From sequence record OP745094.1: a stretch of 2,565 bases of DNA. One strand, given 5' to 3'. The DNA comes from Escherichia phage MCn10. Position numbers and translations under genes: made by a program. Within the stretch, counting starts at the first letter, position 1. Each line of letters starts with the position of its first letter. The notes beneath the pieces were generated by a model. It saw only the letters and a program-made list of their open reading frames with translations. It had not been told where the DNA came from and did not search any database. Of the stretch, positions 1 through 2,565 are shown piece by piece.

Positions 1-2565
1 ATGAAAATTGCGGTGGTGGATAAAGCGCTGAACAACACCCGCTATGATAAACATTTTCAGCTGTATGGCGAAGAAGTGGATGTGTTTCATATGTGCAACG
101 AAAAACTGAGCGGCCGCCTGCTGAAAAAACATATTACCATTGGCACCCCGGAAAACCCGTTTAACCCGAACGATTATGATTTTGTGATTCTGGTGGGCGC
201 GGAACCGTTTCTGTATTTTGCGGGCAAAAAAGGCATTGGCGATTATACCGGCAAACGCGTGGAATATAACGGCTATGCGAACTGGATTGCGAGCATTAGC
301 CCGGCGCAGCTGCATTTTAAACCGGAAATGAAACCGGTGTTTGATGCGACCGTGGAAAACATTCATGATATTATTAACGGCCGCGAAAAAATTGCGAAAG
401 CGGGCGATTATCGCCCGATTACCGATCCGGATGAAGCGGAAGAATATATTAAAATGGTGTATAACATGGTGATTGGCCCGGTGGCGTTTGATAGCGAAAC
501 CAGCGCGCTGTATTGCCGCGATGGCTATCTGCTGGGCGTGAGCATGAGCCATCAGGAATATCAGGGCGTGTATATTGATAGCGATTGCCTGACCGAAGTG
601 GCGGTGTATTATCTGCAGAAAATTCTGGATAGCGAAAACCATACCATTGTGTTTCATAACCTGAAATTTGATATGCATTTTTATAAATATCATCTGGGCC
701 TGACCTTTGATAAAGCGCATAAAGAACGCCGCCTGCATGATACCATGCTGCAGCATTATGTGCTGGATGAACGCCGCGGCACCCATGGCCTGAAAAGCCT
801 GGCGATGAAATATACCGATATGGGCGATTATGATTTTGAACTGGATAAATTTAAAGATGATTATTGCAAAGCGCATAAAATTAAAAAAGAAGATTTTACC
901 TATGATCTGATTCCGTTTGATATTATGTGGCCGTATGCGGCGAAAGATACCGATGCGACCCTGCGCCTGCATAACTTTTTTCTGCCGAAAATTGAAAAAA
1001 ACGAAAAACTGTGCAGCCTGTATTATGATGTGCTGATGCCGGGCTGCGTGTTTCTGCAGCGCGTGGAAGATCGCGGCGTGCCGATTAGCATTGATCGCCT
1101 GAAAGAAGCGCAGTATCAGCTGACCCATAACCTGAACAAAGCGCGCGAAAAACTGTATACCTATCCGGAAGTGGTGCAGCTGGAAAAAGATCAGAACGAA
1201 GCGTTTAACCCGAACAGCGTGAAACAGCTGCGCGTGCTGCTGTTTGATTATGTGGGCCTGACCCCGACCGGCAAACTGACCGATACCGGCGCGGATAGCA
1301 CCGATGCGGAAGCGCTGAACGAACTGAGCACCCAGCATCCGATTGCGAAAACCCTGCTGGAAATTCGCAAACTGACCAAACTGATTAGCACCTATGTGGA
1401 AAAAATTCTGCTGAGCATTGATGCGGATGGCTGCATTCGCACCGGCTTTCATGAACATATGACCACCAGCGGCCGCCTGAGCAGCAGCGGCAAACTGAAC
1501 CTGCAGCAGCTGCCGCGCGATGAAAGCATTATTAAAGGCTGCGTGGTGGCGCCGCCGGGCTATCGCGTGATTGCGTGGGATCTGACCACCGCGGAAGTGT
1601 ATTATGCGGCGGTGCTGAGCGGCGATCGCAACATGCAGCAGGTGTTTATTAACATGCGCAACGAACCGGATAAATATCCGGATTTTCATAGCAACATTGC
1701 GCATATGGTGTTTAAACTGCAGTGCGAACCGCGCGATGTGAAAAAACTGTTTCCGGCGCTGCGCCAGGCGGCGAAAGCGATTACCTTTGGCATTCTGTAT
1801 GGCAGCGGCCCGGCGAAAGTGGCGCATAGCGTGAACGAAGCGCTGCTGGAACAGGCGGCGAAAACCGGCGAACCGTTTGTGGAATGCACCGTGGCGGATG
1901 CGAAAGAATATATTGAAACCTATTTTGGCCAGTTTCCGCAGCTGAAACGCTGGATTGATAAATGCCATGATCAGATTAAAAACCATGGCTTTATTTATAG
2001 CCATTTTGGCCGCAAACGCCGCCTGCATAACATTCATAGCGAAGATCGCGGCGTGCAGGGCGAAGAAATTCGCAGCGGCTTTAACGCGATTATTCAGAGC
2101 GCGAGCAGCGATAGCCTGCTGCTGGGCGCGGTGGATGCGGATAACGAAATTATTAGCCTGGGCCTGGAACAGGAAATGAAAATTGTGATGCTGGTGCATG
2201 ATAGCGTGGTGGCGATTGTGCGCGAAGATCTGATTGATCAGTATAACGAAATTCTGATTCGCAACATTCAGAAAGATCGCGGCATTAGCATTCCGGGCTG
2301 CCCGATTGGCATTGATAGCGATAGCGAAGCGGGCGGCAGCCGCGATTATAGCTGCGGCAAAATGAAAAAACAGCATCCGAGCATTGCGTGCATTGATGAT
2401 GATGAATATACCCGCTATGTGAAAGGCGTGCTGCTGGATGCGGATTTTGAATATAAAAAACTGGCGGCGATGGATAAAGAACATCCGGATCATAGCAAAT
2501 ATAAAGATGATAAATTTATTGCGGTGTGCAAAGATCTGGATAACGTGCGCCGCATTCTGGGCGCG
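1..2565 (+). CDS. Family A DNA polymerase with 3'-5' proofreading exonuclease domain, T5-like phage replicative polymerase; 855 codons, no stop codon within the window
   Basis: Frame +1 is open from ATG at 1-3 to the last base with no in-frame stop. Manual translation shows exonuclease motifs: Exo I in VAFDSETSAL (D164/E166, nt 490-498), Exo II in HNLKFD (D224, nt 670-672), Exo III in YAAKDTDAT (Y312/D316, nt 934-948). Polymerase motifs: motif A in WDLTTAEVYY (D527, nt 1579-1581; E532, nt 1594-1596), motif B/O-helix RQAAKAITFGILYG (nt 1762-1803; compare E. coli Pol I RRSAKAINFGLIYG), motif C in MLVHDSVV (H733-D734-S735, nt 2197-2205). The 855-aa length and the N-terminal MKIAVVDKALNN... sequence match my recollection of phage T5 DNA polymerase; not verified by search. 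Gene symbol left blank because I am not certain of the T5 gene name. Confidence 0.93.
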   Translation, partial: MKIAVVDKALNNTRYDKHFQLYGEEVDVFHMCNEKLSGRLLKKHITIGTPENPFNPNDYDFVILVGAEPFLYFAGKKGIGDYTGKRVEYNGYANWIASISPAQLHFKPEMKPVFDATVENIHDIINGREKIAKAGDYRPITDPDEAEEYIKMVYNMVIGPVAFDSETSALYCRDGYLLGVSMSHQEYQGVYIDSDCLTEVAVYYLQKILDSENHTIVFHNLKFDMHFYKYHLGLTFDKAHKERRLHDTMLQHYVLDERRGTHGLKSLAMKYTDMGDYDFELDKFKDDYCKAHKIKKEDFTYDLIPFDIMWPYAAKDTDATLRLHNFFLPKIEKNEKLCSLYYDVLMPGCVFLQRVEDRGVPISIDRLKEAQYQLTHNLNKAREKLYTYPEVVQLEKDQNEAFNPNSVKQLRVLLFDYVGLTPTGKLTDTGADSTDAEALNELSTQHPIAKTLLEIRKLTKLISTYVEKILLSIDADGCIRTGFHEHMTTSGRLSSSGKLNLQQLPRDESIIKGCVVAPPGYRVIAWDLTTAEVYYAAVLSGDRNMQQVFINMRNEPDKYPDFHSNIAHMVFKLQCEPRDVKKLFPALRQAAKAITFGILYGSGPAKVAHSVNEALLEQAAKTGEPFVECTVADAKEYIETYFGQFPQLKRWIDKCHDQIKNHGFIYSHFGRKRRLHNIHSEDRGVQGEEIRSGFNAIIQSASSDSLLLGAVDADNEIISLGLEQEMKIVMLVHDSVVAIVREDLIDQYNEILIRNIQKDRGISIPGCPIGIDSDSEAGGSRDYSCGKMKKQHPSIACIDDDEYTRYVKGVLLDADFEYKKLAAMDKEHPDHSKYKDDKFIAVCKDLDNVRRILGA

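Follow-up and report, generated by a model that had tools for sequence, protein, structure and literature searches.

The DNA polymerase of phage T5 (pol/D9, T5.122, YP_006950.1) is, as published, an enzyme with high processivity and strand displacement, in which both unique termini are implicated (PMID 15377656). The T5 enzyme is reported to lose strand displacement when its C-terminus is removed (Andraos et al. 2004, PMID 15377656, cited in PMC3303844). UDG-fused family A polymerases form a second group of described systems and comprise those of the N4-like cluster 17, of SPO1, and of SP-15/YerA41/phiLo (PMC10201439; bioRxiv 10.1101/2025.03.26.645540; PDB 9qhs). In published work on related polymerases, UDG-type domains have been proposed to serve as built-in processivity modules. 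A 2023 reclassification left the T5-like polymerases unclustered, and the idea of a UDG-like N-terminus in T5-like polymerase had already been put forward computationally in 2011 (PMC3201878). Here, we analyzed a stretch of DNA of 2,565 nucleotides, referred to in its full length as the window, which encodes a polymerase of the T5 type.

The encoded polymerase and its closest relatives

The protein encoded by the window is an exact full-length match, over 855 residues, to the DNA polymerase of the Salmonella phages Spc35 and Th1 as determined by NCBI/UniRef look-up (ADW80092.1, YP_004306595.1, QEA11190.1, and YP_009849799.1; UniRef100 A0A5B8RNE2). Both phages are T5-like and belong to the genus Tequintavirus. 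The T5 polymerase is of the same family, with the same domain order and the same length of 855 residues, of which 847 are identical without gaps; the substitutions, given from the window to T5, are N55D, M182I, L321I, V392K, K396Q, S443A, D815E, and R850K. The preliminary description had attributed the sequence to T5, and this attribution holds for a T5-like polymerase but not for T5's own protein, which differs at eight residues from the one encoded here. We note that the published biochemistry concerns the T5 enzyme (PMID 15377656) and not the Spc35/Th1 protein.

Judged from its sequence, the window protein is a replicative family A DNA polymerase of the known T5 type and consists of four parts, its enzymatic activities being either predicted or taken from the literature. 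A match to PHROG 17 extends across residues 1 to 853 (E 4e-185). Downstream of an N-terminal extension, the 3'-5' proofreading exonuclease domain comprises codons 137 to 331 (positions 409 to 993, + strand) and matches Pfam PF01612 (DNA_pol_A_exo1; E 1.3e-39; 136.2 bits with a cut-off of 23.6). The family A polymerase domain comprises codons 369 to 760 (positions 1105 to 2280, + strand), based on Pfam PF00476 (DNA_pol_A; E 4.1e-66; 223.9 bits with a cut-off of 34.3) and on alignment to the Klenow fragment, and it is followed by a C-terminal extension.

By sequence comparison, the Klenow fragment of E. coli Pol I (1KFD and 1KLN, among others) shares its exonuclease and polymerase folds with the window protein (E 7e-50; 574 aligned columns, 32% identical). 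Its key residues D355/E357/D424/Y497/D501 in the exonuclease domain and R668/D705/E710/R754/K758/F762/Y766/R841/N845/Q849/H881/D882 in the polymerase domain are kept in the window protein. When mapped onto Pol I, the exonuclease residues correspond to D164/E166 in Exo I, D224 in Exo II, and Y312/D316 in Exo III, and the polymerase residues to D527/E532 in motif A, R588/K592/F596/Y600 in motif B, and H733/D734 in motif C. Among 116 homologs, none of these mapped residues varies apart from Y600, which is Tyr in 97 and Phe in 19. In a Pol I-type domain, catalysis would proceed by the two-metal mechanism, and D527 and D734 would bind the metals. The window protein differs from Pol I in three respects. 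First, S735 is found in place of E883, and this position is Ser in 116 of the 116 T5-like homologs. Second, the protein has no 5' nuclease domain, and T5 encodes the flap endonuclease D15 separately. Third, compared with the Klenow fragment, it carries two additions, i.e., an N-terminal domain with a predicted UDG fold and a C-terminal extension of ~95 residues.

The N- and C-terminal extensions

The N-terminal extension comprises codons 1 to 136 (positions 1 to 408, + strand). In the predicted structure model, residues 1 to ~130 adopt an alpha/beta fold of the UDG superfamily. The homolog alignment was built from the full-length query, while the 140-residue fragment returned only two fragment records; a single-sequence AlphaFold model of residues 1 to 140 had a pLDDT of 42.7 and was unusable. 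Neither PDB sequences nor PDB profiles matched the N-terminal domain, and no Pfam UDG match was obtained for eight diverse members, even at E≤10. A profile of eight Demerecviridae sequences was also searched against PDB and Pfam, and the searches with the terminal extensions, taken together, yielded noise only (Lys_Orn_oxgnase, E 0.073; galectin, E 0.84).

The hallmark of family 4 uracil-DNA glycosylases is four conserved cysteines that bind a 4Fe-4S cluster. These cysteines were not found in the window domain, which contains a single Cys (C32), and the homologs mostly have zero to two Cys and no conserved Cys column. Conserved catalytic motifs, i.e., a motif A of the GE(A/G)PG type and a His-containing motif B, were also not found, with no conserved His column (≤47%). 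The domain is best described as a UDG-like fold and not as a demonstrated UDG, and it is probably catalytically inactive as a glycosylase. In this respect, it differs from phiLo and YerA41, which have an active UDG. In comparison with the UDG-fused polymerases, it is also shorter (~130 versus 190 to 205 residues), and neither Pfam nor HMMER detects it.

Past the Pol I core, codons 761 to 855 (positions 2281 to 2565, + strand) form the C-terminal extension, which gave no sequence match in Pfam (E≤10) or, using phmmer, in PDB. Only about one homolog in three has the final ~55 residues, with an alignment occupancy of 0.34 to 0.58 at residues 796 to 855. The copy of PDB searched contained no experimentally determined structure for a polymerase of the T5 type. 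A tentative reading, to which we give somewhat less than even odds, is that the N-terminal ~130 residues are a UDG fold that has shrunk, with loss of the Fe-S cluster and of the catalytic His, and that may act as a built-in DNA-holding module, which together with the C-terminal extension would give clamp-independent processivity and strand displacement. If true, this would be a confirmation and not a discovery because of the 2011 proposal (PMC3201878).

Codon content of the window and of the native genes

The window is exactly 3 × 855 nucleotides long. Frame +1 has no stop in its 855 codons, while frames +2 and +3 have 42 and 88 stops, respectively. Codon tabulation showed that frame +1 uses a single codon for each amino acid, 20 distinct codons in all: CTG for Leu (76), GCG for Ala (57), CGC for Arg (38), AGC for Ser (42), GGC for Gly (51), CCG for Pro (33), ACC for Thr (37), GTG for Val (51), ATT for Ile (60), AAA for Lys (68), GAA for Glu (55), GAT for Asp (72), AAC for Asn (34), CAG for Gln (29), CAT for His (32), TAT for Tyr (45), TTT for Phe (36), TGC for Cys (15), ATG for Met (20), and TGG for Trp (4). 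The preliminary description had listed one codon per amino acid, and every codon in its list was correct; no amino acid is encoded by two codons. It had also described a window that opens on ATG and closes on the last sense codon, and we observed the same. The window begins with ATG and finishes with the sense codons GGC GCG (Gly-Ala; positions 2560 to 2565, + strand), with neither a stop codon nor flanking sequence, such that the bounds coincide with those of the protein record. Scans with Rfam and for tRNAs detected no noncoding RNA in the window.

The orthologous native genes of Th1, LmqsSP1, and T5 look different. They use 58 to 59 distinct sense codons, have a GC content of 40% compared with 49% in the window, and are 77 to 78% identical to it at the DNA level. 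The Th1 gene starts with TTG, stops at TGA, and uses 58 distinct codons; its GC content is 40.5%, and its DNA identity to the window is 77.0%. The two sequences differ at 591 positions, and all 591 differences are silent. Those in first and second codon positions are fully accounted for by changes of Ser TCN to AGC (32), Leu TTR to CTG (22), Arg AGR to CGC (5), and the start codon TTG to ATG (1). The preliminary description had predicted that alignment to the native T5 gene would give near-complete protein identity together with much lower nucleotide identity and mismatches concentrated at third positions. This is what the alignment gave: the translation is the same in 846 of 855 codons, the remainder being the 8 substitutions and the TTG start, which counts as a mismatch because plain translation reads TTG as Leu. 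At the nucleotide level, the two sequences are 77.3% identical, and the mismatches at codon positions one, two, and three number 67, 34, and 481.

The ends of the reading frame also differ between the window and the native loci. All three native genes (Th1, LmqsSP1, and T5) start with TTG, whereas the window has ATG (positions 1 to 3, + strand), corresponding to the "M" of the protein record. In the native genomes, a ribosome-binding site, AAGAGGAG, lies 7 nt upstream of the TTG start; it is not in the window. The native 3' end reads GGTGCTTGA where the window has GGC GCG, and it holds the annotated GTG start of an overlapping downstream gene, which in T5 is annotated as T5.123. Recoding erased this GTG start, the native ribosome-binding site, and the TGA stop. 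In the native T5, Th1, and LmqsSP1 genomes, a primase or primase/helicase gene lies directly upstream of the polymerase gene, and in native T5, T5.123 and helicase D10 lie downstream of it.

Origin of the nucleotide sequence

Based on these data, we conclude, with a probability of roughly 90%, that the window is an in silico back-translation of a protein database record and not natural DNA. The 855-residue DNA polymerase sequence common to Spc35 and Th1 would have been taken from a protein record, and each residue would have been swapped for the one codon that E. coli K-12 uses most often for it, with the native DNA, the stop codon, and the flanks ignored. Programs that convert protein to DNA in this manner include EMBOSS backtranseq and "Reverse Translate" of the Sequence Manipulation Suite. 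The output of such a tool with a K-12 table shares with the window the single codons, 20 of 20 top codons, the lack of a stop, and ATG for Met.

The preliminary description had noted that the codons look E. coli preferred and that the sequence reads as a protein record converted to DNA. Both statements are borne out. In a sample of 46,112 E. coli K-12 codons, the most frequent codon is the window codon for 20 of 20 amino acids; in a smaller sample of 13,940 codons, the agreement was 18 of 20, and the two exceptions, Ile and Tyr, were near-ties that the larger sample settled in the window's favor. In comparison, the top codon of the native gene is the window codon for only 11 of 20 amino acids. 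We then applied the table of most frequent codons, derived independently from the 46,112 K-12 codons, to the Spc35/Th1 record (YP_004306595.1/QEA11190.1) and regenerated the window at 2565 of 2565 bases, which shows that a K-12 table of this kind suffices to produce it. The back-translated T5 protein departs from the window at 17 bases. The codon table, the exact protein match, and the complete rebuild support that the whole ORF (positions 1 to 2565, + strand) is the back-translated Spc35/Th1 DNA polymerase record.

We considered whether the window could instead be a natural gene with extreme codon bias, e.g., one carried by a T5-like phage or by a host in which translational selection is very strong. 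The only points in favor of this reading are that the ORF is unbroken and that its product is a natural protein. Over 855 codons, the log10 probability of strict single-codon use is −213 with the usage of the native Th1 gene, −202 with that of the LmqsSP1 gene, and −204 with that of the T5 gene; with E. coli K-12 usage, a log10 probability of −243 is obtained for the top codon at every position. As stated in the preliminary description, no natural gene shows zero synonymous variation over this length, and the native genes for the same or nearly the same protein, with their 58 to 59 codons, are in agreement with that statement. Moreover, the window has ATG instead of the native TTG start, and the annotated GTG start of the overlapping downstream gene is gone. 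The closest DNA among 50,697 phage genomes is only 78.4% identical to the window. No megablast match to the window was obtained in 5,426 E. coli genomes or in 72,556 plasmids, and neither IMG/VR nor the GTDB species genomes contained the one 39-mer of the window that was scanned in these two collections. Given that none of the collections searched contained a DNA match, we rejected this explanation, which is effectively refuted.

An improbable though more serious alternative is a physically synthesized gene, codon optimized for expression of a T5-like polymerase in E. coli by a rule of one best codon for each amino acid; the window would be its coding part after removal of vector, tag, and stop. 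The codons are the E. coli K-12 most frequent set, an enzyme of this kind would naturally be expressed in E. coli, and an expression design would also replace the native TTG with ATG; a "one amino acid, one codon" design looks identical inside the ORF, where sequence alone cannot separate the two. Against a synthetic gene, the stop, tag, ribosome-binding site, and cloning flanks are missing, and the ends match the protein record exactly. The window also retains sites for NdeI (three), NcoI (two), NotI (two), and PstI (five) as well as nine A6 to A7 runs, which are usually designed out; a stop, tag or flanks, and the removal of sites and homopolymers are typical of optimized designs without strictly defining them. 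Strict use of single codons is atypical of current gene-design software and counts against this alternative, as does the lack of a match in the plasmid collection. If the window were nevertheless a synthetic gene, its nucleotides would still be without natural information.

Back-translation of a protein record is the explanation with which all of the observations agree: single codons, the top codons of one table, a protein present in the databases, no native context, and no DNA counterpart in the collections searched. Nothing in the sequence itself contradicts it. Because the window is read as a back-translation, its nucleotides hold nothing beyond the protein, and its codon bias, GC content, CpG count, repeats, ORFs in other frames, restriction sites, and RNA folds should be discarded since a lookup table made them. 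At the nucleotide level, nothing is novel; the finding is a data artifact, and its main value lies in quality control for genome scans. In the recoding, real features of the native locus were lost, namely, the strong ribosome-binding site and the TTG start behind it, the TGA stop, and the overlapping GTG start. The protein is a well-known replicative polymerase of the T5 type, and the finding therefore adds no new biology.

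Codon composition and origin of the window

In frame +1, the 2,565 bases of the window form 855 codons without a stop, and no amino acid is encoded by two or more codons. The 20 distinct codons comprise those listed in the preliminary description, all of which were assigned correctly, together with ATG for Met and TGG for Trp. The window starts exactly at ATG and ends on the sense codon GCG (Ala), lacking both a stop codon and flanking bases, as had been claimed. Frames +2 and +3 are interrupted by 42 and 88 stops, respectively, and the longest ORF outside frame +1 is 74 aa. The native orthologous genes of phages Th1, LmqsSP1, and T5 each use 58–59 distinct sense codons. 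The chance of a single codon per amino acid is 10^-213 if codons are drawn from the usage of the Th1 gene itself, 10^-202 with LmqsSP1 usage, and 10^-204 with T5 usage, while the chance of the top codon at all 855 positions is 10^-243 with E. coli K-12 usage. Such codon usage cannot credibly be attributed to any natural process.

Using tblastn against 50,697 phage genomes, we obtained full-length matches to Salmonella phages Th1 and Spc35 (99.9% identity) as well as ~430 records with >95% identity, all from T5-like phages. The sole mismatch to Th1 and Spc35 is the start codon, because tblastn translates the native TTG as Leu, whereas Met is given in the protein record and encoded by ATG in the window. 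Exact-sequence searches of NCBI and UniRef matched the DNA polymerases of Spc35 (ADW80092.1 and YP_004306595.1) and Th1 (QEA11190.1 and YP_009849799.1). The encoded protein is already known. The label "T5" in the preliminary description named the right genus and the wrong phage, the T5 polymerase (T5.122) differing at eight residues.

At the DNA level, the window is 77.0%, 77.9%, and 77.3% identical (ungapped) to the Th1, LmqsSP1, and T5 genes, respectively, so that the predicted discrepancy between protein and DNA identity to T5 was observed. Its best megablast match in the phage collection is 78.4% identical, far from a near-perfect match to a natural genome. Megablast gave no match in 5,426 complete E. 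coli genomes or in 72,556 plasmids, and one 39-mer of the window was not found in IMG/VR or in GTDB (one genome per species). Mismatches to Th1 number 60, 32, and 499 at codon positions 1, 2, and 3, respectively. Those at positions 1 and 2 are explained by Ser TCN to AGC (32), Leu TTR to CTG (22), Arg AGR to CGC (5), and TTG to ATG (1); because the six-fold families and the start cover every one of them, all 591 differences are silent. The window has a GC content of 49%, a GC3 of 0.57, and 209 CpGs, compared with 40%, 0.34, and 82 in the native gene.

Codon usage was worked out independently from two samples of E. coli K-12 MG1655 DNA. In 13,940 codons from CDSs annotated within the first 50 kb, 18 of the 20 window codons are the commonest, with near-ties for Ile and Tyr; in the larger sample of 46,112 codons, taken from 101 long ORFs in four 50-kb regions, this holds for all 20, which bears out the suggestion of E. 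coli-preferred codons. A random single-codon set would equal a given set with a probability of 3e-9, and the top codon of the native gene agrees with the window for only 11 of 20 amino acids. Back-translating the 855-aa Spc35/Th1 protein record (P0001) with the K-12 table reproduced the window at 2565/2565 bases, as expected if a protein record was converted to DNA; the T5 reference protein treated in the same way was 17 bases off. We therefore estimate a probability of about 0.9 that the window is a pure in-silico back-translation. A physically synthesised gene designed under a "one amino acid, one codon" rule would be indistinguishable from it within the ORF; such a construct is nonetheless improbable, as a cloning-aware design fits poorly with the missing stop codon, tag, and flanks, with the NdeI (three), NcoI (two), NotI (two), and PstI (five) sites still present, and with nine A6-7 runs. 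In either case, the nucleotide sequence is not natural.

Native features lost in recoding

Native polymerase genes begin with TTG, 7 nt downstream of a AAGAGGAG ribosome-binding site (271–303 in the Th1 locus and 16068–16100 in the T5 locus; the start corresponds to window 1–3). Five database records (P0005-P0007, P0015, and P0018) place the start 30 codons after the TTG, which gives an 825-aa product; the strong ribosome-binding site AAGAGGAG favours the 855-aa form. At the native 3' end, GGTGCTTGA, the gene that follows (T5.123 in T5) has its annotated GTG start 8 nt inside the polymerase gene (18658–18665 in the T5 locus and 2860–2867 in the LmqsSP1 locus, corresponding to window 2558–2565). 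Here the window reads GGCGCG, and back-translation has erased the overlap. In the Th1 record, the next gene is annotated ~200 nt further on and not at the overlapping GTG. Eleven repeated 4-mer peptides are encoded by exact DNA repeats in the window; in native Th1 DNA, this is true of only one. Rfam and tRNA scans of the window found nothing. Whatever signal the window shows at the nucleotide level is produced by the lookup table, and the encoded protein is its only biological content.

Domains of the encoded polymerase

Pfam domains for a 3'-5' exonuclease (residues 137–331) and a family A polymerase (residues 369–760) scored far above the gathering threshold. By sequence, the nearest solved structures are the Klenow fragment of E. 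coli DNA polymerase I (E 7e-50) and the Taq/Bst large fragments, and no T5-type polymerase was among the PDB matches. Residue mapping against E. coli Pol I identified conserved exonuclease (D164, E166, D224, Y312, and D316) and polymerase residues (R492, D527, E532, R588, K592, F596, Y600, R691, N695, Q699, H733, and D734). The single exception is E883 of motif C ("HDE"), which aligns with Ser735 ("HDS"; window 2203–2205), a residue unchanged in 116/116 T5-like homologs (49–99% identity). Because the catalytic residues are conserved, the protein is expected to be a Pol I-type polymerase that proofreads and relies on two-metal catalysis. In two metagenomic homologs (P0053 and P0069; 1217 and 1251 aa; 59–62% identity over ~60% of the query), Pfam detects intein-splicing and LAGLIDADG domains; both are polymerases of this type interrupted by an intein.

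For residues 1–136, neither sequence nor profile searches of Pfam and PDB gave a match, and within the phage collection this domain is confined to Demerecviridae-type polymerases (908 records). A single-sequence model was useless (pLDDT 42.7), while AlphaFold2 with a 117-sequence alignment gave a usable one (pLDDT 81.4, pTM 0.73). [quoted passage not shown] At ~130 residues against 190–205, the domain is short, and across 117 homologs its one Cys is not conserved and there is no conserved His. The domain thus shows the UDG fold but lacks the hallmarks of family 4, the Fe-S cysteines and the catalytic motifs, and is most likely an inactive glycosylase. The modelled fold is a confirmation of the UDG-like nature proposed in 2011 by Kazlauskas and Venclovas (PMC3201878) and not a discovery. 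It parallels the N4-like UDG-PolAs, in which an inactive UDG has been suggested as a processivity module (PMC10201439), and contrasts with phiLo and YerA41, in which the fused UDG is active (bioRxiv 10.1101/2025.03.26.645540).

Residues 761–855 have no detectable relatives beyond the clade. As cited in PMC3303844 and PMC3201878, T5 polymerase is reported to show high processivity and strand displacement, the latter being lost upon removal of the C-terminus (Andraos, Tabor and Richardson 2004, PMID 15377656). The far C-terminal ~55 residues (codons 796–855, window 2386–2565) have an occupancy of only 34–58% among 115 homologs, and the stretch is found in just about one third of them; not all members of the clade therefore carry the part of the extension implicated in T5 strand displacement. 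Among marine and Vibrio-type relatives, many are 780–800 aa long and have a shorter C-terminus.

Irregular records and implications

Three related records stood out. The unannotated 99.9-kb "Campylobacter phage C13" (MG065692.1, 50393–50800; H36) encodes a polymerase N-terminus 99.3% identical to the window protein, which is of the Salmonella/E. coli T5-like type, and seems to be a Tequintavirus that was mislabelled or is a contaminant. A 94-aa partial hypothetical protein from a 284-bp Enterococcus faecalis contig (P0017) is 100% identical to the N-terminal domain and probably stems from phage DNA contaminating the assembly. "Klebsiella phage KPP2018" (OQ031075.1, 954–3518; H15) has a polymerase 99.4% identical to this protein of Salmonella/E. 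coli phages in a 138-kb record, exceeding typical T5-like genomes (105–122 kb).

The feature noted in the window is a data-preparation artefact, and its nucleotide sequence offers nothing worth pursuing. In practice, back-translated records should be flagged and kept out of nucleotide-level scans.
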